From a virus (taxonomy: Duplodnaviria > Caudoviricetes), in IMG/VR virus record IMGVR_UViG_3300037422_000298: 64,000 nt of DNA. One strand, given 5' to 3'. Shown here piece after piece: positions 587 through 58,231 of this stretch. The notes under the pieces are model-generated. The model ran no database searches. It had not been told where the DNA came from and saw only the letters and a program-made list of their open reading frames with translations. Made by a program: the position numbers and the translations under genes. Each line of letters opens with the position of its first letter. Position 1 is the first letter of the stretch.

Positions 587-904
587 GTGCTCGCGATCGA
601 GAACATCTTCGGCCTCGGCCAGGACGCGACACCCGCGCCGACGCCGACAGTGACAGCCGACAACCGCCGCAACGTGACGCTGCCTGCGGTACCGGATAAC
701 ACCATCGTTCGTTGCAAGTTCGATCCGGTGATCAACGGCATGCGTTGCGAGCCGGTTCAGCTGCTGGAGCCCCCGATCGTATTTATGCTCGCGGCGGGTG
801 GCCTCGCGTCGCTGCTTCTTGGCTATGCGCTCGGTCGCGCGCAGTTCTTCTCGCGATTCGCCAAGCACGTCGCAGAAGATCCGTTACACGTTCGTCGGCG
901 CTAG
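587..904 (+). CDS. Small membrane protein with N-terminal FGLG motif, TM helix and RRR tail
   Basis: ORF track; hydrophobic IVFMLAAGGLASLLLGYALG. Confidence 0.7.
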   Translation: MLAIENIFGLGQDATPAPTPTVTADNRRNVTLPAVPDNTIVRCKFDPVINGMRCEPVQLLEPPIVFMLAAGGLASLLLGYALGRAQFFSRFAKHVAEDPLHVRRR

Positions 905-1260
905 TTCTGACAGCTCGGGCAAAGGTCTTCAGGGCTGTCGCTCGATGATCGCCGCCAACGTTTCTCAACACCGAGCGCGTCGAGCTTTGCGATTGCGTCT
1001 TCGCGGTTTTGGCCGCGCGTCGTGATCGCGACGCCACAACGATCGCAGATGAGGTCGGCTTCGGAGTAGCGATCGCCGAGCTTCGAGAGGTCCGGCGGCG
1101 TGTCCATGTGATCGAGGCAGAAAAACGGACCATCGGGAAGTCGTGGGTCGTCCTTCGCGACGAAGAGATGTGTTGGGCAGTTCGCGCACGACACGGTCAC
1201 ATGCGGGACGCTCGGATCGTCTGGGTCGGCGCCTTCAAGCGGCCAAAGCAGCTTCTTCAA
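901..1260 (-). CDS. Cys-rich (Zn-finger-like) hypothetical protein
   Basis: CANC, CDRC and CPSC motifs; TTG start overlapping the upstream stop is inferred. Confidence 0.55.
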   Translation of the reverse strand: MKKLLWPLEGADPDDPSVPHVTVSCANCPTHLFVAKDDPRLPDGPFFCLDHMDTPPDLSKLGDRYSEADLICDRCGVAITTRGQNREDAIAKLDALGVEKRWRRSSSDSPEDLCPSCQN

Positions 1261-1580
1261 GCGCTCACCGGAGTCGACCACAACGACTGTTTGAAGCCGA
1301 CGCTCTTGGGCTGTGTTCGCACGAGCGCGATCGGCGGACGCTTCTGCTTGGCGTCGTCGGCGGTCTCCCAAACAGCAAGAACGATCGCACCGATGTCGTC
1401 ACCATCTTTTTGGGTGTACGGCATGCACGCGGCGACCGGCCAACGACGAAATACGGAGCGCGCGATCTGCTTCTCGCGCTCAGCGCTGTCGATCAGATCG
1501 GCCTGCGTGACGTCTTCAGGCTTCAAGAGGTAGAGGCGATACGTCGACACGCGCCCGAACCTAACGCTTGACGCTTCCAC
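1257..1580 (-). CDS. Hypothetical protein
   Basis: ORF track; coupled to the downstream ORF. Confidence 0.5.
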   Translation of the reverse strand: MEASSVRFGRVSTYRLYLLKPEDVTQADLIDSAEREKQIARSVFRRWPVAACMPYTQKDGDDIGAIVLAVWETADDAKQKRPPIALVRTQPKSVGFKQSLWSTPVSA

Positions 1581-1661
1581 CGTCGACCGCTACAGTCGTC
1601 GTCGTGAAGTTCTCGCGCCGGTCATCTCGCTCGTCTAGTAGCAGTCGCTAAAGCGACTCCT

Positions 1662-1747
1662 GGAAGGTGAGGTCCGCATGGCGTGGACGCCCGTCTCGAA
1701 AACGGGAAGCCCTTAACTGTGGCCGGGTTCGATTCCCAAACCTTCCG
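1662..1747 (+). tRNA. tRNA-Ser(CGA), non-canonical (8/4-like)
   Basis: Acceptor GGAAGGT/ACCTTCC, anticodon arm CCCGT-CTCGAAA-ACGGG, long variable arm, GGGTTCGATTCCC T-arm, G discriminator, no encoded CCA. Confidence 0.8.
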
Positions 1748-1752
1748 CTGCT

Positions 1753-1837
1753 GGAAAGAAAGCTCAGGCGGGTGCAGAGGCCCGGTTGCTAACCGGGTAG
1801 GCGCGTCAGCGTCCGGGTTCGAGTCCCATTCTTTCCG
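1753..1837 (+). tRNA. tRNA-Ser(GCT), non-canonical (8/4-like)
   Basis: Acceptor GGAAAGAA/TTCTTTCC (8 bp), anticodon arm CCCGG-TTGCTAA-CCGGG, variable arm GCGC-GTCA-GCGT, GGGTTCGAGTCCC T-arm. Confidence 0.8.
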
Positions 1838-1858
1838 CGAAAAAAGTTGCGATCGCTG

Positions 1859-1887
1859 TTGACGGCTGCGATCCGTTCGGGCATCGT
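1859..1887 (+). promoter_or_regulatory. Sigma70-like promoter for the putative ncRNA
   Basis: TTGACG-17 nt-CATCGT. Confidence 0.5.
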
Positions 1888-2021
1888 GCGTCCACCTTGA
1901 ACCCCGGATGTGTCGTCGCGAGACGCCACAGCGTTCACTCCGAGTCGACCGGGCACCGACGTAGGACGTCACGACCTGACGTGGAAGACTCTAGCTGGGT
2001 GGGGACTAAGGTCGAACCAGC

Positions 2022-2108
2022 GACAGCGACGGAGAGACGACGCGGACAGTTCGGAAAGACGAGCGAGACGGTCTGGAGAGACAGGCAGGACGGCCCGGAG
2101 AGACGGGC
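2022..2108 (+). repeat. 4 x 22-23 nt unit GAC(A/G)G-NNN-GGA(G/A)AGAC-complement
   Basis: Stems CGAC/GACG, GTTC/GAGC, GTCT/AGGC and GCCC/GGGC around a conserved loop. Confidence 0.8.
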
Positions 2109-2113
2109 AAAAG

Positions 2114-2147
2114 GAGGGCTCGACGCAAGTCGGGCTCTTCGTTTTTT
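2114..2147 (+). terminator. Intrinsic terminator
   Basis: GAGGGCTCGAC-GCAA-GTCGGGCTCTT followed by CGTTTTTT. Confidence 0.75.
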
Positions 2148-2150
2148 CGG

Positions 2151-2435
2151 CTACCGCACAAGCGGCAGCGATCGTCGTCGCAGTGACGCCGCCCAACGCT
2201 TCGCCGCAGCAAGCCCGGCGCGATACGAACAGGTGTCGCAGAACGCGACCCATACCCACTCCACGGCATCCTCTGGATCAAGTAACGCTGTTCCACAACC
2301 GCAACAGACGTTGAGCGTGTACTTCACGCGCAGGTCATTGGCGAACGCGTAGTGCTCGGCAGCACCGGCCGCGCTGATCGCATCGAGCACGTCGCCGAGC
2401 TTCACACCATCAGGAAACACGTGCTCGCGATTCAT
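2151..2435 (-). CDS. Small Cys-containing hypothetical protein
   Basis: ORF track; CCGC/CDTC; overlaps upstream stop. Confidence 0.55.
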   Translation of the reverse strand: MNREHVFPDGVKLGDVLDAISAAGAAEHYAFANDLRVKYTLNVCCGCGTALLDPEDAVEWVWVAFCDTCSYRAGLAAAKRWAASLRRRSLPLVR

Positions 2436-34472: not shown

Positions 34473-34666
34473 ACAAAAAAGAAATCCATCGTGGTTGTGG
34501 CGGCGACGTCGAGACGATCTATCGCAAACAAGATCTCGACGGCGATGGTGTACGCCGCATGCACCCCGAGTACGAGTGCGATTGTTGTGGATGGATCGCG
34601 CCTAGCGAGGTGCAGATCGTCGACGGCGAATCGAAATACCCCAAGGCCAGGATGATCCATCCATGA
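34469..34666 (+). CDS. Small Zn-ribbon protein
   Basis: HRGCGG..CDCCG; coupled on both sides. Confidence 0.5.
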   Translation: MNKKEIHRGCGGDVETIYRKQDLDGDGVRRMHPEYECDCCGWIAPSEVQIVDGESKYPKARMIHP

Positions 34667-36942
34667 ATCTCAACGGCGGTAACGATCTGATCAGCCTCAT
34701 GCCGCGCGAAGACATCCGCGGCGTCGACGACGCGTTCAACGAGATCTTCGATCGCCACAAGATGGATCGTCTTGGCGGCGCCTCCGGTCGCGGCTGGTCG
34801 TCGTACGCGACGTTCCAACGTTGCCCGTATCTCTACAAGGTGACGTACATCGACGGTCAGCGCGGAACGGCCGCGCCTGCACTCGAAACTGGATCGATCT
34901 TCCACACGTTCATGGCACTCCACTATTTGTGGATGCTCGACGAGAACCTCTCGCTCACGCCTGACGTGTGCCGCGAAGAGCTGATGGTCAGCGGCGTTCG
35001 CGTCGAGTCGATCATCGCTGGCTGGCGTTGCTACGACTCGTACCGTATGCACTACGAAGCCGACTATCTGTACCCACTCGCGATCGAGGCGTGGGCTCAA
35101 GGCGATCGCGGCAACACATGCCGCTACGACTTGATCGCGCACATCGAGGAGCCCCAGCCCGGCATCGTGCCCGGCACCTGGATCATCGAGCACAAGTGCC
35201 TCCACGCCGACGAGAAGATCTTCGACTACACGACGGGCGAGCTGCTGACGATCGCCGAGCTGGCCGCACGCAAGCAGGAACCTGTCGTGCTCGCGTACGA
35301 TGAGACGACACGGCGTATGGTCAAGACGCGCGCGGGCGCGCCCACACCGACGACGGTCCGTGACGTCTATGAAGTCGTGCTCGAATCCGGTCGCCGTCTA
35401 CGCACGTCCGATAACCATCCGTTCCTGACCGCGCGTGGCTGGGTACCAGCTGCAGCGCTCACGCGTGAGGACTGGGTCGCGCTCGCGCCATCGACGCGCG
35501 GATGGGAGCAGCTCGGCAAGTACACCGACGCGCAAGTCGAGTTCGTCGGGTTCATGCTCGGCGACGGCTGCATGACCAACGGCAAGTTCACGAACACGAA
35601 CGAGGCGATCCTCGAACGCTTCAAGGACGTCGCGACTACCATCGGCGCCAAGCCGACGCTTCTACGGAGCGAAGATCGCGCTCCGACGGTGACCACTTCG
35701 ACGGCTACCGACGGTCCGGCGCGAGCACTTCTCGACGAGCTTGGGCTGTCAGAGTGTCTCGCCGCGACGAAGTTCGTTCCTGATCAACTCTTGGAGTGTC
35801 CGGATCGCCAAGTCGAGATCCTGCTCGGCGCGCTCTGGAACACGGATGGTTGCGTCGACACGTTCGACGAAATCAAGCTAGGCAGCGACGGGCAGCAACC
35901 GCGCCAAAACAAAATCCGCATCGCGTACGTCTCGCGGAGCCGCGCGCTCTGCGACGGCGTACAGACACTCCTACAGCGTTGCGGCATCCCGTCGACAGTC
36001 ACCGAGTCCTCGGTGGAATACGACGGTGAACGTCGTGACGTCTATACGACGAAGGTCGTGACGCGCGAAGGCAAGCGCCGTTTCCTCAAGGCAATTGTCG
36101 ACGGGCGCATCCCGTTCCTCAAGTACGACATCAAGCCCGCCATCGACATGATCAAGCCCGGCGACGATGCATACGTACCGTCGGCGTACATCAAGCATCA
36201 CGTCCCCATCGAGGACCAGCCTGGTGCGCTGCGGCAGCAACTCAAGAACCGCGCCGTCGAGCGCGAAACGCTCAAGAAGTACTACGACAAGAAGCCGAGC
36301 GAAGCGCTCAAGCGCGTCATCGACGCCGACCTTGCCTGGGACCGCGTGAGTCACGTCGTCGTTAGCGATCGCGCGATGATGTACGACATCACGGTCCCGC
36401 GGGCGCACAACTTCGTCAGCAACGGGATCATCACGCACAACACGGCCTCGCGTTTCACCGCCGACCTCCTCGAAGGCTGGCACAACGACGGCGAAATCTT
36501 GGGCCAGATCATGGTCTGGAAGCAGGCCAAGCTCGACAAGAAGTACGGCAAGCTACGCGGCACGATCGTCAACATCGTCGGCAAGCAGAAGATCCCACAG
36601 TTCCAACGCGTGATCGTCCCGGCGCAACGTTGGCACGTCAGCGGCCACGACGAAGACCTCAAGGTCTGGGCGGCGCTCCAAGAGATGTATCGCGCGACGA
36701 ACACGTGGCCCAAGGCGCGTAACAACTGCGTGCATCGCTACGGGCTGTGTCAACTCTTTCAGCACTGCTCGTCGAATGAAAAACTCACGCCGCTTCGGCA
36801 ACTCGAAAAGGCCGTGAAGTCCGCAAGGTCTGAGCAGTCAGCGATCGCAGCAGCGACTGAGTCGCCGTTGGGACTTGCATCTGTATCGACTCCGAGTGAT
36901 ATGGCAAACGGCGCAGCAGCTGCCGTGACCGAGAGCGAATAA
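34663..36942 (+). CDS. Cas4/RecB-like PD-(D/E)XK exonuclease with intein
   Basis: SSYATFQRCP..GSIFH; RYDLI; IIEHK|T after splicing; C-terminal C..C..C. Confidence 0.8.
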   Translation: MNLNGGNDLISLMPREDIRGVDDAFNEIFDRHKMDRLGGASGRGWSSYATFQRCPYLYKVTYIDGQRGTAAPALETGSIFHTFMALHYLWMLDENLSLTPDVCREELMVSGVRVESIIAGWRCYDSYRMHYEADYLYPLAIEAWAQGDRGNTCRYDLIAHIEEPQPGIVPGTWIIEHKCLHADEKIFDYTTGELLTIAELAARKQEPVVLAYDETTRRMVKTRAGAPTPTTVRDVYEVVLESGRRLRTSDNHPFLTARGWVPAAALTREDWVALAPSTRGWEQLGKYTDAQVEFVGFMLGDGCMTNGKFTNTNEAILERFKDVATTIGAKPTLLRSEDRAPTVTTSTATDGPARALLDELGLSECLAATKFVPDQLLECPDRQVEILLGALWNTDGCVDTFDEIKLGSDGQQPRQNKIRIAYVSRSRALCDGVQTLLQRCGIPSTVTESSVEYDGERRDVYTTKVVTREGKRRFLKAIVDGRIPFLKYDIKPAIDMIKPGDDAYVPSAYIKHHVPIEDQPGALRQQLKNRAVERETLKKYYDKKPSEALKRVIDADLAWDRVSHVVVSDRAMMYDITVPRAHNFVSNGIITHNTASRFTADLLEGWHNDGEILGQIMVWKQAKLDKKYGKLRGTIVNIVGKQKIPQFQRVIVPAQRWHVSGHDEDLKVWAALQEMYRATNTWPKARNNCVHRYGLCQLFQHCSSNEKLTPLRQLEKAVKSARSEQSAIAAATESPLGLASVSTPSDMANGAAAAVTESE
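35197..36441 (+). mobile_element. Intein (415 aa) with LAGLIDADG homing endonuclease
   Basis: Starts CLHAD; TSDNHPFLT; GFMLGDG; GALWNTDG; ends ITHN followed by Thr. Confidence 0.9.
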
Positions 36943-38629: not shown

Positions 38630-41600
38630 ATGATCGAACCCTCACTGACCGAGATCTCGCAGAGCATCCTCGCCAAGCGGTATCTGATCCGCAACGCACA
38701 GAAGGAAGTCGTCGAGACCCCGAAGGGTCTTTTTCAACGTGTCGCCAGGGCTATCGCATCCGTCGAGCAGGGTCCTGCCGAGCGCGAGAAGTGGGAATCG
38801 ATCTACTACACGATGATGGCCTCGTGCGACTTCGAGCCGAACACGCCGTGCCTCGTCAACGCGGGTCGTCCTGACGGCACCGGCCAGCTCAGCGCGTGTT
38901 TCGTGATCCCGGTGCACGACTCGATGGACGGCATCTTCACCGCACTGCACCACGCCGCGATGATCTTCAAGAGCGGCGGCGGCGTCGGCTACTCGTTCTC
39001 GCGCCTTCGCCCCGAGGGCGACTTCGTCGCCAGCACCTCTGGCATCGCGTCGGGACCGTGCTCGTTCATGGAAGTCTTCGACTTCGCCACCGAGCGCATC
39101 AAGCAAGGTGGTGTGCGCCGCGGCGCGAACATGGGCATCCTGCGCATCGATCACCCCGACATCCTGCGGTTCATTCGACTCAAGCAGGATTCTGCGAAGA
39201 TGCAGAACTTCAACGTGTCGGTCGCGATCACCGACGCGTTCATGCTCGCGCTCGAAGCGGGCAAGGACTACGACCTCGTGCATCCGACGAGTGGCAACGT
39301 CGTCGGGCAGCTGAACGCGCCGACCGTGTGGCGCGAGATCGTTCACTGTGCACACGTGATCGGCGACCCGGGGCTGTTCTTCATCGATCGCGTGAACGCT
39401 GCCGATCCATTGAGCGCTGCGCTCGGTCCGATCGAAGCAACTAACCCTTGCGGCGAGGTGCCGCTTCGTCCCTTCGACGCGTGCTGCCTCGGTTCGATCA
39501 ACCTCGCGAAGTTCTACGTCGAGAAGCAGAACGGCAACGCGCGACACAGCAACGTGACGCTGCGCCACGGGTCGATCGATTTCGATCGGCTGCAGAAGAC
39601 CGTCACGAACAGCGTGCGCTTCCTCGACAACATGCTGTCGATCAACAGGTACCCGATCCCCGAGATCGCAGATGTCACTTCGAAGTGTCGCAAGATCGGC
39701 CTCGGTGCGATGGGCTGGGCCGATCTTCTGATCCAGCTCGGCATTCCGTACGGTTCACCCGAAGCGCGTGAGCTGGGCGGTCACGTACAGAAGCTCGTCA
39801 ACGGTTGGGCCGTCGATGCGAGCGAAGGCCTCGCCGAGGAGCGCGGCCCGTTCCACTACTGGGACGTCTCCACGTGGAAGAAGAATGGCGACAAGCCGCG
39901 CCGTCACTCAACGGTCTCCGTGATCGCGCCAACTGGAACGATCAGCATGATCGCCGGTTGTTCGTCGGGCATCGAGCCGCTGTATGCGCTTTCGATGACG
40001 CGCGAGCAAGCAGGACTGTCACTTCAAGAAGTCAGCCCGCTCGTCGAGAAGATCGCCAAGCGCGAAGGTTTCTGGTCGGATCAGCTCGCCGAGAGCGTTC
40101 GCCAAACGGGCTCGCTCAAGACCGCCCCCGGCGTCCCGGATCACTGGCGCGCAGTGTTCGCGACCGCGAACGAGCTGGACATGGAAGCCCACGTCGGCAT
40201 GCAGGCCGCGTTTCAAGCACACGTCGAGGACGGTGTCAGCAAGTGCCTCGCGGCAGGTACGCTGCTGCCGACATCGCGTGGCCTCATGCGCATCGAGGAC
40301 TTCTCGACCGTCGAAAGCGACGACACGTTTGTCGCACTCGATGGCAGCATCACGACCGGAGGTCATCGCATCGTGCAGCACTACCGTGCGGGGCTCAAAC
40401 CGTCGACGCGTGTCGTGTTCGACAGCGGCGCGCAGCTCGTCGGAGCGACAGCCTCACATCGCGTGATGACGATCGACGGCTGGAAGCTCATGAGTGAGCT
40501 ACGTCCCGGCGACAAGGTCATTGGACGGTTCGAGGAGTCACACAGCGCGGGCAGCGAGCCGCTCGACGGTGACGACACGTGGCGCACCAACGCCAAACAG
40601 ATTCCGTTCCCGAAATACATGAGTCCGAGCCTTGCCGAGTGGCTCGGCATGTTGTGCGCCGACGGACACATCATCGAGTCGACAGGTAACGTCGGTCTCA
40701 CGTGCGCAAACGATATCGTCGAACAACGCTTCATCGATCTGTCGCAGCTTCTCTTCGACATCACGCCGCGCGTGACGCGCGACGACCGTACCGAGAACGT
40801 TCGCTACGTCTCAATCACGTCTCGCAATCTCGTTCGGCGCGTGCATAGCCTCATCGGTTCTGGCGCGTACGGCAAGCACGCGCCAGACGCGATCCTTCGC
40901 GGCAGCTCGATCGAGAAGCGCGCGTTCCTTCGTGGCATCACGCTCGATGGATTCATCACGGACGATCACGGCCTCTGTGTCTATGGCGGCATGTCTGAGA
41001 CGCTTGCGTACCACGTCGCGGAGATCTGTCGTAGCTTCGGCTTGCCGAAGGTCTACCAAGGTTCGAAGACGGTCGTTGGCGCATCGTTGCCAGGGGCACG
41101 CTGCTACAACGTCTACGTCAGCGGTCTAATGCAGGCGCAGATCGACTGCGTCGAGCCACACAAGAACCGCGCGCCAGCCGACGTCTCGTGGTCAGTGCAC
41201 GTCGATCGCGAGATGGTCGAACGTACGACGGTTCCCGTCGACCACCCCAACTACGGCGCGCTGCGCAGCCTCAAGCAGGACACCTCACGGCGGTACTGCA
41301 CAAGCCGTGTCGCTGAAGTGTTCAGCTGGCCGACTGATCGGATCGTTCTGACGGCTCGGTCTGTCGAAGACGCCGGGCTGGTCGAGCTATACGACGTCGA
41401 GGTCGAGCATTCACACGAGTACGTCGTCAACGGTGTGGTCTCGCACAACACTGTCAACCTGCGTAACGCGGCAACCGAGACGGACGTCGAACAGGCGTAT
41501 CTCGCGGCATGGCAGAAAGGCTGCAAGGGCATCACCGTCTATCGCGACGGTTGTCGAAGCGGTCAAGTGCTCACGGCCGGTGTTGCTGTCAAGCCTGCCG

Positions 41601-42235
41601 AAGTGAACACACCGAGTGCAGTTCCTGTCGGCACGCCGCTCTTTCCTGCCGTCAAGCGTCGCGTTCCCGCCAGCGGCATTCGAGGCGGTGTGACGCTCAC
41701 CAAGTCCACGCCGTACGGTTCTGTTCACATGACACTCAACAACCACCCCGACGACGGCAAGCCGTTCGAGCTGTTCGTGCGCGTCGGCAAGAGTGGCTCG
41801 GAAGTCATGGCGTGGGCTGAAGCGTTCGGACGCGTCGTCAGCTACACGCTGTCGATTCCGTCGCCGTTCTCGCCGCAAGCACGCCTCGAAGAGATCGCGC
41901 GTCAGCTGGAGAACATCGGCGGCGGCGACGTCTGGGTCGCTGGCCAAGAACGCGTCGTATCGGCGCCCGACGCGATCGCGAAAATGCTGTTGCACTACCT
42001 CCAACACGGAGTCCAGCCCGTCGTGGTGTTGCCGCCGAGTGCGCCGTCGATTCCGGTCGTCGTGTCGACACCCGTAGCAGCGCTCGCTGCAGGTAGTGAC
42101 GTCGTTCCTGTGCAGGCGACGGGACGCGCAAAGTCGAGATCGCTGAGCGACCTGTGCCCAGCCTGCGGCAAGGCAACGTTCACGTACCAACAACGCTGCG
42201 GGCTCTGCACCAACTGTGGGCACTCCAAGTGCTGA
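38630..42235 (+). CDS. nrdJ: Class II (B12-dependent) ribonucleotide reductase with intein and C-terminal Zn-ribbon
   Basis: PNTPCLVNAG; QLSACFV; RRGANMG; TNPCGE; IAPTGTIS; SK|TVNL; KGITVYRDG. Confidence 0.95.
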   Translation: MIEPSLTEISQSILAKRYLIRNAQKEVVETPKGLFQRVARAIASVEQGPAEREKWESIYYTMMASCDFEPNTPCLVNAGRPDGTGQLSACFVIPVHDSMDGIFTALHHAAMIFKSGGGVGYSFSRLRPEGDFVASTSGIASGPCSFMEVFDFATERIKQGGVRRGANMGILRIDHPDILRFIRLKQDSAKMQNFNVSVAITDAFMLALEAGKDYDLVHPTSGNVVGQLNAPTVWREIVHCAHVIGDPGLFFIDRVNAADPLSAALGPIEATNPCGEVPLRPFDACCLGSINLAKFYVEKQNGNARHSNVTLRHGSIDFDRLQKTVTNSVRFLDNMLSINRYPIPEIADVTSKCRKIGLGAMGWADLLIQLGIPYGSPEARELGGHVQKLVNGWAVDASEGLAEERGPFHYWDVSTWKKNGDKPRRHSTVSVIAPTGTISMIAGCSSGIEPLYALSMTREQAGLSLQEVSPLVEKIAKREGFWSDQLAESVRQTGSLKTAPGVPDHWRAVFATANELDMEAHVGMQAAFQAHVEDGVSKCLAAGTLLPTSRGLMRIEDFSTVESDDTFVALDGSITTGGHRIVQHYRAGLKPSTRVVFDSGAQLVGATASHRVMTIDGWKLMSELRPGDKVIGRFEESHSAGSEPLDGDDTWRTNAKQIPFPKYMSPSLAEWLGMLCADGHIIESTGNVGLTCANDIVEQRFIDLSQLLFDITPRVTRDDRTENVRYVSITSRNLVRRVHSLIGSGAYGKHAPDAILRGSSIEKRAFLRGITLDGFITDDHGLCVYGGMSETLAYHVAEICRSFGLPKVYQGSKTVVGASLPGARCYNVYVSGLMQAQIDCVEPHKNRAPADVSWSVHVDREMVERTTVPVDHPNYGALRSLKQDTSRRYCTSRVAEVFSWPTDRIVLTARSVEDAGLVELYDVEVEHSHEYVVNGVVSHNTVNLRNAATETDVEQAYLAAWQKGCKGITVYRDGCRSGQVLTAGVAVKPAEVNTPSAVPVGTPLFPAVKRRVPASGIRGGVTLTKSTPYGSVHMTLNNHPDDGKPFELFVRVGKSGSEVMAWAEAFGRVVSYTLSIPSPFSPQARLEEIARQLENIGGGDVWVAGQERVVSAPDAIAKMLLHYLQHGVQPVVVLPPSAPSIPVVVSTPVAALAAGSDVVPVQATGRAKSRSLSDLCPACGKATFTYQQRCGLCTNCGHSKC
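40244..41449 (+). mobile_element. Intein (402 aa) with LAGLIDADG-like endonuclease
   Basis: Starts CLAAG; ATASHRV; GMLCADG; GITLDG; ends VSHN followed by Thr. Confidence 0.9.
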
Positions 42236-44612: not shown

Positions 44613-45220
44613 CACTGACGTCGCCCACTGGAAGCGACATCGAGGTTAGCGATATCAGCCACCGGTTGATGAACGTTCCCCTCGGGACGACACTACGCGT
44701 GCCCGATCGCCACGAGTGGTACATCACGGGCGTTGCTATTATGCCGACGCGCGGATACACGCCGCCGCTCGGCGCTGGTGAAACACGCGATGCACGCGCG
44801 TGGGGCGACTTGCAGATCCGCGTGAACGATCAGCCCGACGCGCATTTTCGCGCCAACGTTCTGACGTTGATCGATCGGTACTGGGGGCGTTTCAACCTGA
44901 ACCCGTCGCTGCCAGAGTTGGTCGCGAAGCTGACCGAAGCACAGCAGGTGATGTTTACCGCACCGAAGCTCTCCGAGTTGTACACGCTGATGGACCATCT
45001 CGTGATCAAGCACATGGAGTACATCGACGCCGCGGCACCGCGACTCGATAAGCCAGTAGTGCTGCAGGGCGGCGTGCAGTGCATGATCGAGCACGTTCCA
45101 TCCGACGGTCCAGCGGTCGCTGAGGTCATGACCGATACACAGCTCGGAAATTTCGACATCAAGATCCTACGCGCTCTCGACGTCGAGCTGTCGGTGATCG
45201 TCAAGAGGCCTGTCTCGTGA
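44609..45220 (+). CDS. Hypothetical protein
   Basis: GTGA-coupled on both sides. Confidence 0.6.
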   Translation: MTLTSPTGSDIEVSDISHRLMNVPLGTTLRVPDRHEWYITGVAIMPTRGYTPPLGAGETRDARAWGDLQIRVNDQPDAHFRANVLTLIDRYWGRFNLNPSLPELVAKLTEAQQVMFTAPKLSELYTLMDHLVIKHMEYIDAAAPRLDKPVVLQGGVQCMIEHVPSDGPAVAEVMTDTQLGNFDIKILRALDVELSVIVKRPVS

Positions 45221-47841
45221 CCCTAACCGTCGCTGATATGCCCGCGCTCGATCGCGAGATCGCGGAGGACGCGCCCAAAACGATTCGAGGCAATGCGCAC
45301 GGCGCGGACTGTGCGAACTGTCCATTCGGTCGACTGGGTCGACCGAACCAGCCCGTGTTCGGCGAAGGATGGGAACGCCCCAACTGGATCGTCGTCGGTG
45401 AGGGTCCGGGGCAGAACGAGGTGATCCAACAACGTCCGTTCGTCGGCAGCTCAGGACGTCTCGTCAACGAAGCGCTCTCGAAACTCGGCGTCGCCCGCGA
45501 GTCGCTGTTCGTCACGAACAGCATGCTCTGTCAGCCGCCGCACGGCACAACCGATCACGTCAAGAAGCTCGCACGTCAGGCGTGCGGCCCACGGCTGAAA
45601 CAGGAGCTAGCTAAATTTCCCGGCGTCCCCGTTCTCGCACTCGGCGCCCACGCAGCACAGCAGCTCACGGGCAACGAGAAGTTCTCGATCACGCAGATGG
45701 CGGGCGCGTACTACGAGGTCGACGTCGACGACAGCGGTACCAAGCGCTCCGTGATCCCGAGTATTCACCCCGCAGCCATTCTCCGTGGCGGTTCCGGTGG
45801 CGGTGGTGGCGGTAGCCATACCGTGGATCTCGCGTTCTGGAATCTGCTCTACGACGCACAGAAGGTGAATCTTCTCTCGCAAGGGCGCGACATCAAGTTC
45901 ACCGACGATATCGACGTTGAACAGGAGAGCGTCGATCGTGCTCGGCAGCTGATCGCCGACTTCGTTGCCGACGCCCGTTGTTTGAAGCGGTTCGCGTGTG
46001 ACACCGAAACGTACGTTCCGAATCCCAAAGCGCAAACAGCACTGTCGCCCGTGAACGCGCATATGTCGGCGCTCGGGCTCGCGACCGTCGAACGCGCGGT
46101 CAGCATCGCGTGGGACTTGTGTATCCCCGACGTTATCGCACCGCTCGATGCACTGTTTGCCGACCCCGAGATCGTCAAGGTGTTTCACAACCGGATCTAC
46201 GACGTACCCGTGCTCGAACGGCACGGCTTCGTGATCAATGGCGAGATCCACTGCACGATGCTCATGCATCACAACGCATTTCCGGGTCTTGCTCACAACC
46301 TGCAGCGCGTGCTGACGCAGTTCTTCGCTGCGCCGCCGTGGAAAGCCGAATACCGCCACGGTCAGGGCACGCTGACCGAGCTACTGCCGTACAACGCGCG
46401 CGACACACTCGCGACCGCGCGGATCGAGGAGCCGATCCACAAGGTCATGATCAACACGCGCGCCGACCAGACGTACAAGGTCGATCTGGCGATGGCGCAC
46501 GCGGCCAGCGTGATGCACGTGAAGGGCGTCCCGATCGACCGCGAGATCAACGAACAGCTCCGCGTCGGCTTCCGTACGAACATCGACAAGGCGCGGCAGG
46601 AACTCGACGACAAGATCCGCGACCCCGGCATCTTCGCGCGATTCAAGGAGCGTCTCGCGTTCGAACAGGCCCGACGTACGCGCAAGCACGACCCGGTCGA
46701 TCCCGACGAGCGTATCTCTGCACGATTGAGTGAGATCGAATCCAAGAGTCACTTCAACTTCATGGTCGACTCCGGCGATCACATCGTCGCGTTCCTGAAG
46801 GCGTGTGGCGTCCCGTTGAGCCTTCAGACGCCGAGTGGACGCATCTCGACGAAGAAAGATGTTCTCGAAGCGTTCGTCGACTATCCCGAAATCCGTGCGC
46901 TGCTTTCGTACCGCGAGAACGCCAAGCTGCTCAGCACCTTCTGCGAGCGCATGTTCACGCGTCAGATCGGCAATCGGATCTACTTCGGATTCGCCGACGA
47001 GAACGGCCGCGTCCATCCGCGCTGGAGTGTTCACGCGATCACCGGACGCTGGCGTTCTGAGGGTCCTCAAGCGCAGAACTGGCCCAAAGCTGACAAGAAG
47101 AAGGGACGCCCCAACCTCCGCAGTCAAGTTGTCGCGCCCTACGGGCGTGCCTTCGTGGCGTTCGACGCGAAGCAGCTCGAAGCGCGTCTCATCGCGCTCA
47201 TGTCGGGCGACCCGTTCCTGCTCGACATCTTCTACAACGACCGCGACATCCACACCGAGTTTGCGAAGATCGTCTGGCCAGAGTGGGACACCGTTCCCGT
47301 CGACGAGCGCAAGGTCCGTCGCGACCTGATCAAGCGTCCTGAATACGGCGCGTTCTACGCAGGCTCGATCGAGACGCTGTGGAAGTCCGTCGTGCGCGAC
47401 TACCCGAGCGTCACGATCGGCATGATCGGCAAGATGGTGCAGGTGATGAAGACCCGGATGCCGGGCGTCACCGCGTGGCACCAGAACATGATGCGGACGG
47501 CGGATCAGCAAGGCGAGATCCGCAGCATGATTCTCGGCCGTCGGCGCTGCTTCCCGATCAAGCAGTTTGACCTGTCCGAGGTCGTCAATTTCCCGATTCA
47601 GTCGTCGGGTGCCGACCTGATCAACCTCGGGCTCATGGAGATCATGCTGCTACTGCCCGAGGACGCCTTCCCGATTCTTCAGATCCATGACGCCGTCGTC
47701 TTCGAATGCGACGAGGACGATCAGGATCTCATGAAGCAGCTCGTCGTGAAGAGCTTCACGCGAGACGTCACGTACAACGGCCACACGATGCACTTCCCGG
47801 TCGACGCCAAGTCGGGCAAATCGTGGGCGGAAGTCAACTAG
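45217..47841 (+). CDS. polA: Family A DNA polymerase with N-terminal family-4 uracil-DNA glycosylase and 3'-5' exonuclease domains
   Basis: CANCP, VGEGPG..E..PFVG, HPAAILR (UDG); DTET, HNRIYD, YNARD (exo); DAKQLEAR, KRPEYG..Y, QIHDA (pol). Confidence 0.92.
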   Translation: MTLTVADMPALDREIAEDAPKTIRGNAHGADCANCPFGRLGRPNQPVFGEGWERPNWIVVGEGPGQNEVIQQRPFVGSSGRLVNEALSKLGVARESLFVTNSMLCQPPHGTTDHVKKLARQACGPRLKQELAKFPGVPVLALGAHAAQQLTGNEKFSITQMAGAYYEVDVDDSGTKRSVIPSIHPAAILRGGSGGGGGGSHTVDLAFWNLLYDAQKVNLLSQGRDIKFTDDIDVEQESVDRARQLIADFVADARCLKRFACDTETYVPNPKAQTALSPVNAHMSALGLATVERAVSIAWDLCIPDVIAPLDALFADPEIVKVFHNRIYDVPVLERHGFVINGEIHCTMLMHHNAFPGLAHNLQRVLTQFFAAPPWKAEYRHGQGTLTELLPYNARDTLATARIEEPIHKVMINTRADQTYKVDLAMAHAASVMHVKGVPIDREINEQLRVGFRTNIDKARQELDDKIRDPGIFARFKERLAFEQARRTRKHDPVDPDERISARLSEIESKSHFNFMVDSGDHIVAFLKACGVPLSLQTPSGRISTKKDVLEAFVDYPEIRALLSYRENAKLLSTFCERMFTRQIGNRIYFGFADENGRVHPRWSVHAITGRWRSEGPQAQNWPKADKKKGRPNLRSQVVAPYGRAFVAFDAKQLEARLIALMSGDPFLLDIFYNDRDIHTEFAKIVWPEWDTVPVDERKVRRDLIKRPEYGAFYAGSIETLWKSVVRDYPSVTIGMIGKMVQVMKTRMPGVTAWHQNMMRTADQQGEIRSMILGRRRCFPIKQFDLSEVVNFPIQSSGADLINLGLMEIMLLLPEDAFPILQIHDAVVFECDEDDQDLMKQLVVKSFTRDVTYNGHTMHFPVDAKSGKSWAEVN

Positions 47842-55780: not shown

Positions 55781-58231
55781 ATGGCCGCGATCATTCCACA
55801 CCTCGAAGTACCGTCCGATATCACGCCACTCGAACGTGCGTACGACATCTGCGCCGGTTCGATCAACGGCGCGTCGCTCGGCGAAGATTTACCATCCTGC
55901 CCGTCGCCAAACGCGGTCCTCGCGGACGCACATGCTGGCTTGCTCGGCATGGTGTACGTGCGTGAGGCCGTGTTCCAGAGCTTGATGACCAAGCAGTTCG
56001 TCGTGCGTCCCGGCGACATCAAGGGCAAGGACACGCGGAACGTTTACCTCGTGCTCGATCAACCGATCGGTCCCGGCCCAGCGTGGAACCCGGCGACGAA
56101 CCCCAATGTGCAGCAATACCAGCTGCTGTCGTGGACGTCGAAGATGAACACGCCGTCGTGGTCATTGCCTGCAGGCTCGCCGCAGATCGGCGGCGCGTGT
56201 CCTGGCGCCGTTGCTGGACAGAGCATCGTGCCGGAGAGCGCGCTGCGTGCAGCCGCACGCCACGTCAACCGCGGGCTCGGGCGTTCCAGCGAGACACCCG
56301 TCAACCTCGCACAGTGTATCTGCGAATTCTGTGTGACCGGTGACACGAAGGTACTCGTCGAGGGTCGTGGTTGGATTCCGATCGAAGAGCTTGTCGGCGC
56401 CAACGTTCGCGTCTGGTCGGGTATCGGTTGGCGCGACACGCATGCTGTGTTTCGCGGCGTCAAACCTACCGTTCAACTGACGACGTCGTGGGGGCACACG
56501 ATCCGCGCGACGGCAGATCACAAGATCTTGACGGTCGATCGCGGCATGGTGCCGATCGAAGAGCTGAAGGAAGGCGATCGTCTCGTTTTCCAGCCGCCTG
56601 AGGAAGGCCGGTGGCCGACAGTGGCGCCGATCGTTGGTTACACGCCGTCAGGACATCACAACGAGATCGACTACGAGAACATGCCGCGTGAGTGGACATT
56701 CCAAGTCGGGCTGTTTGCGGGCTACGTACTCGGCGATGGGAACATTTACGGAGGCAAACACCCAACGGTCAGTCTCGTAGCGTCCGAAGCCGATCGCGAC
56801 GACCTCGAACGTCTGCGCAACGTCGTGAATCGTTGGTGTGAGACCGACGCTTCGGTTACCGTGCGCGAGCACGCGCCCAACGGATTTACATCCAAGTTGA
56901 CGCGTTCGGCGCATCTCGCCTTCCGTGTAAAGGCCATCGCGCAACTGCTCACGGCGATCGGGCTCGACAAGTCCGTACCGCCGGAGGCGCGCCGCGTCCC
57001 GAACACGTTATGGACGGCGACACAGGAGGGCGTTCGCGGATTCCTCTGCGGGCTCTTCTCGACTGACGGGTCAGTGAGCCTCTCCAGTTCCAAGTTCGAG
57101 CTGTCTCTCGCGTCCGTCTCCGAGACATTGCTGCGCGATGTTCAGCTATTGCTCATGAGCTTCGGTATCCGCTCGACGATCTGCGCCTACGAAACTTCGA
57201 ACAGGCGGCGGGTCGTACAAGGTTACCGCCCGCTCTATAAGCTCTCGATCAGTAGCATCGGACACGTTCGACTGTTCGCAGATCGCATCGGTTTTTGGAA
57301 TGCGCGCAAGCACGCCAAGCTCCTCGAAGGCCTCGAACAGAACGCTGACGTCACAACGCAGCAGAAGTACCCCAAGGTTGAGGCAATCACCTGGCTCGAT
57401 GAAGAAGAGGCCGTCTACGACCTCATCAACGTCGGTGAAGAGCATCACTTCGTCGCCAACGGCATTACCGTGTCGAACTGCTACGCAACAGGCGGCCAGT
57501 ACAGCACCGGCCAAGTTCAGTTCGCGCAGTTGTTGCGCTTTCTGTGGGCACGTCAGGCGATCAACTTTCCGGCGCAGGCACCGGACGGCTCGATGTCGAC
57601 GGCGTTCGTCGAGACGATGGTCTACGCGATCAACAGCGCGGACTACAAGCTCGGTGGTGGCACCGTCAAAGGCGAGGGTGCCGAGGCGACGCAGGATCTG
57701 CCGCCGGAACCGAGCGGGCGACGCTTCTTCCGCATTCACGACTCCGGTGACTTCTTCGAAGAGGAGTATCTTCGGCAGTGGAAGGCCGTCGCCGATCGAC
57801 TGCCCGACATCACATTCTGGGCACCGTCGCGCATCTGGGCCACGAGCTGGGGCACCGACGCCGTCAACCGCTACAACCGTGACCAACGAAACCTGATCAT
57901 TCGACCGAGCGCCTACGAAGTGAACGAGCACGGTCCCGAGAACCTCGGGCCAGGCTGGGCAGGTCCGACGACGGTGATCGCTGTGCAGCAGAACCTCGGC
58001 ATGACGCCGGAGCGCGAACAGTACGTCTACGATCGCGCCGCGCGTTTCCCGCCAAAGATGACCGGTCCGGATCCGCGCTACACCTGGAACTGTCAGGCAT
58101 ACGCAACCGAGGATCAGAAGCACACGTGCCGCAAAGCCGTCGCACCGCCCGGCTTTGGCGGCCCTGACGGCAAAGGCTGTCGTGCGTGTTGGGTCGCGAC
58201 CGACGAAATCGTCAACTACTCACTGCACTGA
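55781..58231 (+). CDS. Gp88-like (radical-SAM-related Fe-S) protein with intein
   Basis: SKMNTPSWSLPAG..ACPGA; spliced CICEF|CYA; FFRIHDSGDFF; C-terminal CRACW. Confidence 0.75.
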   Translation: MAAIIPHLEVPSDITPLERAYDICAGSINGASLGEDLPSCPSPNAVLADAHAGLLGMVYVREAVFQSLMTKQFVVRPGDIKGKDTRNVYLVLDQPIGPGPAWNPATNPNVQQYQLLSWTSKMNTPSWSLPAGSPQIGGACPGAVAGQSIVPESALRAAARHVNRGLGRSSETPVNLAQCICEFCVTGDTKVLVEGRGWIPIEELVGANVRVWSGIGWRDTHAVFRGVKPTVQLTTSWGHTIRATADHKILTVDRGMVPIEELKEGDRLVFQPPEEGRWPTVAPIVGYTPSGHHNEIDYENMPREWTFQVGLFAGYVLGDGNIYGGKHPTVSLVASEADRDDLERLRNVVNRWCETDASVTVREHAPNGFTSKLTRSAHLAFRVKAIAQLLTAIGLDKSVPPEARRVPNTLWTATQEGVRGFLCGLFSTDGSVSLSSSKFELSLASVSETLLRDVQLLLMSFGIRSTICAYETSNRRRVVQGYRPLYKLSISSIGHVRLFADRIGFWNARKHAKLLEGLEQNADVTTQQKYPKVEAITWLDEEEAVYDLINVGEEHHFVANGITVSNCYATGGQYSTGQVQFAQLLRFLWARQAINFPAQAPDGSMSTAFVETMVYAINSADYKLGGGTVKGEGAEATQDLPPEPSGRRFFRIHDSGDFFEEEYLRQWKAVADRLPDITFWAPSRIWATSWGTDAVNRYNRDQRNLIIRPSAYEVNEHGPENLGPGWAGPTTVIAVQQNLGMTPEREQYVYDRAARFPPKMTGPDPRYTWNCQAYATEDQKHTCRKAVAPPGFGGPDGKGCRACWVATDEIVNYSLH
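56330..57478 (+). mobile_element. Intein (383 aa) with LAGLIDADG endonuclease, penultimate Ser
   Basis: Starts CVTGD; ATADHKILT; GYVLGDG; GLFSTDG; ends TVSN followed by Cys. Confidence 0.9.

Follow-up and report, generated by a model that had tools for sequence, protein, structure and literature searches.

A phased array of GGARAGAC hairpins in a candidate phage non-coding RNA beside tRNA-Ser genes, and its recurrence in other RNAs

What is specified by the roughly 300 nucleotides of phage DNA that follow a pair of tRNA-Ser genes, hold no credible open reading frame and end at a strong terminator? The interval lies near the start of a 64,000-nucleotide stretch (64 kb; here referred to as the window) from IMG/VR record IMGVR_UViG_3300037422_000298, assigned to the Caudoviricetes. 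A first-pass annotation, made from the letters alone, had described positions 1859 to 2147 as a non-coding RNA with four tandem hairpins displaying GGA in their loops, and had suggested a sponge for the host regulator CsrA/RsmA or a decoy. We followed up that description computationally, and as an observation it is confirmed in most of its points; the role proposed for the RNA is a separate matter and is taken up below. The contig is phage-like, with a G+C content of 62%, and the genes in the window include those for a ribonucleotide reductase, a family A DNA polymerase, ThyX, a primase-polymerase and helicases, along with three intein-bearing genes. A BLAST search with the locus found nothing among 50,697 phage records, and neither this search nor comparison of the DNA polymerase, which is at most 27% identical to that of any cultured phage, pointed to a close cultured relative. 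Look-alikes of the ThyX protein in the ESM Atlas were uninformative on the host.

The locus is arranged, in order, as a sigma-70-type site, two tRNA-Ser genes, a stretch of about 300 nt lacking any credible ORF, and an intrinsic terminator. The features are as follows, with L258 denoting a metagenomic relative that is described further below.

1568 to 1596, plus strand: promoter-like site of the tRNA-Ser operon (TTGACG, 17 nt, TACAGT), called by a consensus scanner; both hexamers are kept in L258.
1662 to 1748, plus strand: tRNA-Ser(CGA), found by ARAGORN; 65% identity to L258.
1753 to 1838, plus strand: tRNA-Ser(GCU), found by ARAGORN; 88% identity to L258.
1859 to 1887, plus strand: candidate internal promoter (TTGACG, 17 nt, CATCGT) recognized by reading the sequence, with a conserved GCGATCGC palindrome block on its 5' side.
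1895 to 2030, plus strand: 5' domain of the non-coding RNA, where conservation is highest within the locus; 91% identity to L258, with frame-breaking indels.
2113 to 2150, plus strand: intrinsic terminator called by a scanner, with a 12-bp stem (2113 to 2140), a 4-nt loop and a T-run; changes to the stem in L258 preserve pairing.

Within the 5' domain are a hairpin at 1910 to 1929, which carries a GCGA tetraloop, and a helix formed by 1972 to 1977 with 2009 to 2014. The terminator, already described as strong on first reading, abuts the stop codon of a convergent minus-strand ORF (2151 to 2435).

Between the 5' domain and the terminator lies the hairpin array. When both strands of the 64-kb window were searched, the octamer GGARAGAC occurred exactly four times, each time on the plus strand, at 2031, 2053, 2075 and 2097. 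About 4.8 scattered copies would be expected by chance, so the signal resides in the clustering and phasing of the octamers, which are spaced by exactly 22 nt across 2031 to 2104. Each copy sits in the loop of a hairpin unit.

2026 to 2043, plus strand: unit 1, from sequence and folding, with loop GGAGAGAC (2031 to 2038) on an imperfect stem, GCGAC/GACGC, that has one A.A mismatch.
2049 to 2064, plus strand: unit 2, from folding, with stem GTTC/GAGC and loop GGAAAGAC (2053 to 2060); a U.G pair becomes U-A in L258.
2071 to 2086, plus strand: unit 3, from folding, with stem GTCT/AGGC and loop GGAGAGAC (2075 to 2082); this unit is duplicated in L258.
2093 to 2108, plus strand: unit 4, from folding, with stem GCCC/GGGC and loop GGAGAGAC (2097 to 2104); L258 has GCTC/GAGC, both sides having changed.

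Four tandem hairpins are thus present in 22-nt phase, three with clean stems and one mismatched, and the covariation of the stems of units 2 to 4 beneath a constant loop, like the single mismatch in the first stem, is as originally described. In units 2 to 4, the first G and the last C of the loop form a fifth pair, giving 5-bp hairpins with a GARAGA hexaloop. The fold of the array is much more stable than that of shuffled sequences (z = -4.3), none of 200 shuffles being equally stable. Unit 1 may alternatively join a long-range helix with 1938 to 1948, as it does in the modeled consensus fold.

The evidence for conservation comes from two informative sequences, the window and L258, which aligns to window positions 1251 to 2154 at 80% identity. 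L258 was the one homologue among 41 loci returned by a loops-only pattern scan of metagenome contigs, the remaining 40 being simple or eukaryote-like tandem repeats. Identity to L258 is uneven along the locus: 78% in the operon leader, 65% and 88% in the first and second tRNA genes, 73% in the spacer with the putative promoter, 91% in the 5' domain of the RNA and 87.5% in the array. The whole of 1895 to 2150 is conserved at 88 to 91%, above the level of the first tRNA. The two sequences differ on both sides of a stem, with pairing kept, in unit 4, in the helix 1972 to 1977/2009 to 2014 and in the terminator stem. L258 also carries indels of 1, 1 and 2 nt and has five array units, one having been duplicated, compared with four in the window. 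We found no conserved ORF, in agreement with the first reading, and the sole ATG-initiated short frame examined reads ATG TGA in L258. Compensatory changes in the stems, frame-breaking indels and this early stop together mark a selected non-coding RNA, and comparison of the two sequences thus shows 1895 to 2150, as judged at the sequence level, to be under purifying selection as an RNA.

Other searches for relatives gave little to add to this pair. The JGI contig L282, which is near-identical, brought no new information. A search with the upstream gene (587 to 904, plus strand) returned only two contigs, one near-identical and breaking off within the RNA, the other 1.4 kb long and stopping short of it. 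In IMG/VR, neither a relative of the 177-aa minus-strand ORF nor a match to the tRNA-Ser pattern was found. The sole match of a 16-nt word from the 5' domain (L281) was a chance match in coding sequence and was set aside. BLAST with the array alone yielded a single weak match, which proved to be a real two-unit array in the cultured Vibrio phage 1.250.O.

The promoter proposed on first reading, TTGACG-17-CATCGT, held up in part: its -35 hexamer is conserved in L258 along with the palindrome block upstream of the site, but the scanner does not call the site and the -10 hexamer is CAATGT in L258. The only sigma-70-type site called by the scanner in 1400 to 2600 is that at 1568 to 1596. Because the internal promoter is uncalled and only its -35 hexamer is conserved, the RNA may instead be transcribed from 1568 to 1596, as a 3' trailer to the tRNA-Ser genes of that operon. 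The putative product would then be an RNA of ~255 nt that either has its own weak promoter or is trailed from the phage tRNA-Ser operon, and that would end in either case at the intrinsic terminator.

Is the array peculiar to this phage? The repeated unit can be defined as a stem of 4 to 5 bp with free sequence, an invariant GGARAGAC loop and a purine-rich linker of GAC type, 22 nt in all. IMG/VR and prokaryotic genomes, one for each species, were scanned for the pattern, and the figures on distribution given below are those of samples. By a module we mean at least two units at a spacing of 20 to 24 nt, each with the invariant loop, a covarying stem of at least 3 bp and a 5' G[AG]C linker, on the transcribed strand; the window array fits this definition. 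Many arrays among the matches listed have the identical loop between flanks that differ from array to array and are nonetheless complementary. Pairing holds in 96% of the cells of 37 three-unit arrays, for which the covariation score is 0.76 compared with 0.19 in shuffles and at most 0.11 with slid partners. Since the arrays were chosen for at least three flanking pairs (the inner pairs, alignment A2), this pairing statistic is partly circular; the fourth stem pair, which lay outside the selection, is still mostly paired. G[AG]C stands directly 5' of the stem in 148 of 154 distinct units, and loops and linkers are almost pure purine, the pyrimidines all lying inside the stems. A covariance model built from the arrays (R1), one of the checks that had been suggested at the outset, finds one site in the window (2044 to 2110; 67.6 bits; E = 1.5e-19), the window having been in the training alignment, and gives 50 to 68 bits on arrays outside it. 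Searches of the window and the gut-phage arrays against Rfam 15, at gathering and loose thresholds, matched no family, and a description of the GGARAGAC hairpin was not found in a full-text literature search. On sequence grounds, then, the array, which makes up the 3' half of the window RNA, consists of three clean copies and one imperfect copy of a portable module that is not private to the window phage.

These statistics also bear on whether the repeats act in RNA at all. Iterons or operator sites in the DNA could account for conserved 8-mers at regular spacing and for the GAC that recurs roughly every 11 bp in the array. The conserved part of the unit is asymmetric, however, and its flanks covary. 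G.U pairs, which would be A.C mismatches on the opposite strand, make up 15% of the stem pairs in the 154 distinct units, which fixes the strand to the transcribed one, the hairpins of the window forming on that strand alone, and favors RNA over duplex DNA. The orientation of the module is always that of the transcribed strand, tmRNA included. We therefore consider DNA-level repeats barely credible as an explanation.

The module was found in several kinds of RNA, in phages and beyond. In several gut-phage classes that are unrelated to one another, the array takes up the space between a gene for a Prp-type cysteine protease and a scaffold-like gene (phrog_13908), which is followed by the major head gene. 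The array ends there 0 to 8 nt ahead of the Shine-Dalgarno sequence, the range for ribosome-binding sites of phage head genes being 0 to 20 nt. The scanner supports a promoter directly upstream in one class (L002) and not in two others (L005 and L007), so we make no claim that the arrays start gut-phage transcripts. In tmRNA, three units occupy the pseudoknot region after the tag in Ilumatobacteraceae, Microthrixaceae, other Acidimicrobiia and one Sumerlaeota genome, and two phage tmRNAs (L028 and L167) also carry three units. Strong matches were present in 4 of 151 sampled Actinomycetota genomes, all within tmRNA. In Rhodobacteraceae of the Ruegeria/Phaeobacter type, the module lies in the pre-rRNA leader, ~380 nt upstream of the 16S gene and ~80 nt upstream of a boxA-like TGTTCTTTGACA, one array per operon and in every operon copy of two genomes; strong matches were found in 2 of the 101 Rhodobacteraceae genomes sampled. 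Each cellular genome has its matches in a single class of stable RNA and does not have them scattered over mRNAs. Among phage tRNA clusters, one array stands beside type II hammerheads (L159) and another upstream of two tRNA genes (L222), and in the cultured Vibrio phage 1.250.O a promoter is followed by a tRNA-like gene, two units and a long hairpin, an arrangement much like that in the window. Finally, a complete dicistrovirus genome (L224), with an RdRp, a 3C protease, CrPV-type capsid proteins and a Cripavirus intergenic IRES, has four units in its 5' UTR that end 12 nt before the ATG of ORF1. Placement thus varies, from 5' of ribosome-binding sites or tRNAs to internal in tmRNA and 3'-terminal in the window RNA.

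We considered what this distribution means for the proposal of a CsrA/RsmA sponge, or of a sponge for a divergent CsrA-like protein encoded by a phage. As in CsrB and RsmZ, several hairpins exposing GGA stand beside a terminator. The 11 GGA triplets counted in the first-pass annotation are there, but about 8 are expected in 289 nt from base composition, so that there is no enrichment beyond the four octamers. The suggested Rfam check went against the likeness, with no match to CsrB, RsmY or RsmZ at the gathering score over the window or at E <= 10 over 1500 to 2300. The GGA lies at the 5' edge of the loop, with pairing predicted for the first G, and the conserved element is the 8-mer together with its GAC linker, which exceeds a CsrA site in length; the accompanying caveat, that an 8-nt loop unlike ANGGA may have a different ligand, was well placed. 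A six-frame search with PF02599, which detected its positive controls in E. coli, B. subtilis and T. maritima, found no CsrA in five genomes with module-bearing tmRNAs or pre-rRNA leaders. CsrA was likewise absent from the window and from 12 other array-bearing loci (10 viral and 2 metagenomic) in a six-frame search (control, 2e-33) with an HMM built from 30 proteins of sampled Pseudomonadota, in which 56 of 81 genomes have CsrA. One copy of the module resides in a eukaryotic virus, the dicistrovirus, and the restriction of matches to one stable-RNA class per cellular genome is unlike what a regulon-wide sponge target would show. The window feature is probably not a CsrA sponge, and we rate a sponge of either kind as very improbable. 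Of the idea of a multivalent protein-binding RNA, the structured non-coding hairpin repeat stands, while the link to CsrA/RsmA is left unsupported by Rfam, the GGA count and the CsrA searches.

The array could also be a series of boxB-like hairpins in an antitermination or elongation signal, recognized in the nascent transcript either by an N-like phage protein or by RNA polymerase together with Nus factors. The boxB of lambda has a 5-bp stem and a GNRA-like purine loop, and the window hairpins are similar in size and in having a purine loop. In Rhodobacteraceae the array takes the place of boxB in the rRNA leader, upstream of the boxA-like element, and phage copies precede long untranslated tRNA or RNA regions and late operons. 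No boxA-like word (TGYTCTTTRA, one mismatch allowed) occurs in 1500 to 2200 of the window, however, and the strong terminator stands directly 3' of the array, facing convergent minus-strand genes, so that read-through would yield only antisense RNA. Nor does an antitermination signal agree with the copies that lie within mature tmRNA or ahead of an ORF in a eukaryotic virus. We regard this explanation as improbable, though not negligible.

A relationship to tmRNA deserves similar scrutiny, since the array is also present in the phage tmRNAs L028 and L167 and in several cellular ones. The window RNA might be a remnant or decoy derived from a phage tmRNA that retained the post-tag pseudoknot and the array, lost the tRNA-like domain and interferes with trans-translation. 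Phage tmRNA genes often sit in tRNA loci, as the window RNA does, and in a 10-nt stretch and in the pairing of a loop with downstream sequence it is like the pseudoknot that precedes the L028 array. Against such a descent, ARAGORN found only the two tRNA-Ser genes, and Rfam gave no tmRNA even at E <= 10. The RNA has no acceptor stem or T-arm, its 3' end being a terminator, and no conserved tag frame, the TAG at 1962 to 1964 of the window being in a GAA context in L258. BLAST of the 5' domain against the collected loci, including those with tmRNA, produced chance-level words only, and alignment with the L028 tmRNA by MAFFT was not credible outside the array. Descent from tmRNA is, in our estimate, quite improbable.

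What, then, might the module do? The reading we tentatively favor, at rather less than even confidence, is that the array is a multivalent docking platform for one broadly conserved partner, and that the window RNA works in trans, either as a decoy for that partner or to recruit it. A loop that is both asymmetric and invariant, set on a stem of free sequence and repeated in tandem, would be the signature of a recognition site that is used multivalently. Each loop with its linker would be a putative docking site. The hosts of the module are RNAs that are very abundant or act on the ribosome (tmRNAs, pre-rRNA leaders, leaders of phage head genes, tRNA clusters and the dicistrovirus 5' UTR). As the putative partner we rank the small ribosomal subunit, or a protein associated with the ribosome or stable RNA such as S1 or NusA, above CsrA. 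The window phage would offer the array in trans as the decoy or recruiter, and the highly conserved 5' domain would supply a phage-specific function. The presence of the module in Firmicute, vibrio and high-G+C phages, in tmRNA, in rRNA precursors and in an insect virus implies that any partner is widely conserved, or that there is none. The differing placements of the module and its sporadic occurrence in cells count against this reading. The latter means that a universal partner would be using an optional site, and a role confined to the RNA itself fits that pattern equally well.

Such a role would be that of fast-folding, purine-looped insulators or stabilizers that protect neighboring functional RNA (tRNAs, ribosome-binding sites, tmRNA domains or the 5' domain of the window RNA) against mispairing and hold off exonucleases; in the window, array and terminator would shield the 3' end of the tRNA-operon transcript. 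Loops and linkers that are nearly all purine, with pyrimidines locked in stems, suit this function, as does the constant position of the module next to structured RNAs or ribosome-binding sites. A range from Firmicutes to an insect virus, with sporadic presence in cells, is easy to explain without a partner, and the number of units varies by duplication, four in the window versus five in L258. What a purely structural element does not need is an invariant 8-nt loop and a GAC linker across phyla, as any stable tetraloop hairpin would do. We judge it unlikely on balance, though a serious contender.

A bolder form of the docking idea makes the hairpin a universal ribosome-directed module. The loop is identical, letter for letter, to a 23S rRNA segment next to the macrolide/Erm site; two genomes that carry the module have it in their 23S genes as AGAC-GGAAAGAC-CCC. 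The hairpin might mimic part of the peptidyl-transferase center of 23S rRNA, or dock on a component shared from bacteria to insects. One contact would then serve phages, tmRNAs, rRNA leaders and a dicistrovirus alike, with the window RNA as a free-standing decoy or recruiter. We consider this a long shot.

Were the more general docking platform correct, one 22-nt unit would be common to phage late-gene leaders, tRNA operons, tmRNA and pre-rRNA, and a single partner would explain these four kinds of RNA, which biologists treat separately. The cargo beside phage tRNA genes would then include a selected regulatory RNA and not tRNAs alone. The unit is short, modular and defined by sequence, and therefore readily testable; it is present in at least one cultured phage and host, Vibrio phage 1.250.O and V. 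splendidus.

Several known systems resemble the window RNA in part. The 3'ETS-leuZ RNA of E. coli, ~50 nt long, base-pairs with small RNAs and is located between the last tRNA of its operon and the terminator. The window RNA is likewise a candidate functional RNA between a last tRNA and a terminator, but at ~255 nt it is longer, it contains a hairpin array and it has no antisense target of at least 13 nt in the window. We rejected an antisense regulator on the same result, the RNA having no complementarity of 13 nt or more to the remaining window; one 12-mer is complementary to the tRNA leader and is not kept in L258. The units of TIGR arrays measure 36 nt and hold two 9-nt spacers that do not complement each other, and the arrays adjoin a gene for a Nop-domain protein (PMC12045711). 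They share with the window array an alternation of conserved "edge" and "loop" segments with short variable ones, are common in phages and have a terminator at their end (PMC12045711). A TIGR array was excluded here, as the units in the window repeat every 22 nt and their variable segments complement one another. No Pfam match to a Nop domain was found in the ten ORFs of the first 7.9 kb, and the neighboring ORFs had no Pfam or PHROG match to one.

The closest parallels are with the RNAs already weighed as alternatives. The PK2 to PK4 region of tmRNA (RF00023) holds three module hairpins in Acidimicrobiia-type, Sumerlaeota and two phage tmRNAs, whereas the window RNA is without a tRNA-like domain, a tag frame or a match to the model. 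Unlike the boxB of lambda nut sites and rRNA leaders, the window module is a hexaloop of fixed sequence that is repeated 2 to 7 times. With CsrB, RsmZ and RsmY (RF00018, RF00166 and RF00195), the window RNA shares the form of a multi-hairpin small RNA with GGA loops and an intrinsic terminator, and a multivalent logic. It differs from them in its loop, an 8-mer of invariant sequence that has GGA at the edge rather than A(N)GGA, in its conserved linker, and in that the same module occurs in tmRNA, in rRNA leaders, in a eukaryotic virus and in genomes that lack CsrA.

Beyond the window, the tandem-hairpin module was found in the following loci.

L028:607-1002, minus strand: phage-encoded tmRNA (Rfam, 82 bits)
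L159:2700-4705, minus strand: tRNA cluster of a marine phage, 11 or more tRNA genes
L005:11391-12717: head-gene region with the array, gut phage
L007:8208-9599: head-gene region with the array, gut phage
L224:786-868: four GGAAAGAC hairpins with UGAC linkers, dicistrovirus genome

The tmRNA of L028, a 47-kb viral contig of 64% G+C, contains four of the hairpins and was missed by ARAGORN, although Rfam calls it as tmRNA. Its tag appears to be unusually long (~24 residues), with an end that differs from the usual LAA. Two further full-length tmRNA genes, both with a three-hairpin array, occur in one Ilumatobacteraceae MAG (L272 on G001:C16 and L276 on G001:C12); the presence of two copies is due to a genuine duplication or else to an artefact of binning. 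The tRNAs of the marine phage cluster have two hammerhead ribozymes of type II and a single hairpin array scattered among them.

Both gut phages share the gene order portal, Prp cysteine protease, hairpin array and scaffold-like gene. NLR[ML]F, a Prp cleavage motif of the L27 type, stands at the start of the scaffold-like product. Each phage thus has a Prp of its own encoded beside the likely substrate of that protease. The only eukaryotic virus among the pattern matches was L224, a complete dicistrovirus genome with RdRp, 3C protease, CrPV capsid and a Cripavirus intergenic IRES, in which the array ends 12 nt upstream of the ORF1 start codon.

In the window itself, a conserved block precedes the array RNA.

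Window 1846-1882: conserved block, including palindrome GCGATCGC and near-repeat CTGCGATCC

The block brackets the TTGACG hexamer of the candidate internal promoter and is identical at 35 of 37 positions to the metagenomic relative L258 despite the divergent spacer around it; it may be an operator. Neither tRNA-Ser gene (1662-1838) reaches the Rfam gathering threshold for tRNA, and both match the tRNA-Sec model best, also below threshold (36-38 bits). This would fit an atypical acceptor/T-stem geometry. The first of the two genes is only 65% conserved in L258, with its anticodon loop nonetheless kept. Elsewhere in the window, three genes bear inteins, two of which contain LAGLIDADG domains.

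Window 34663-36942, 38630-42235 and 55781-58231: intein-bearing genes (PD-(D/E)XK nuclease, ribonucleotide reductase large subunit and GP88-family gene)

The window's family A DNA polymerase (45217-47841) has a uracil-DNA-glycosylase-like domain at its N-terminus.

Together with the preceding AGAC, the hairpin loop GGAAAGAC is identical to the 23S rRNA stretch AGAC-GGAAAGAC-CCC, located in two module-bearing genomes.

L322:1495-1515: matching segment, 23S gene of G004
G001:C14:100149-100174: matching 23S segment

An 8-mer has a ~7% chance of turning up somewhere in rRNA, and the identity could be coincidence or mimicry of this 23S stretch, which corresponds to the macrolide/Erm region around A2058 in the peptidyl-transferase centre.
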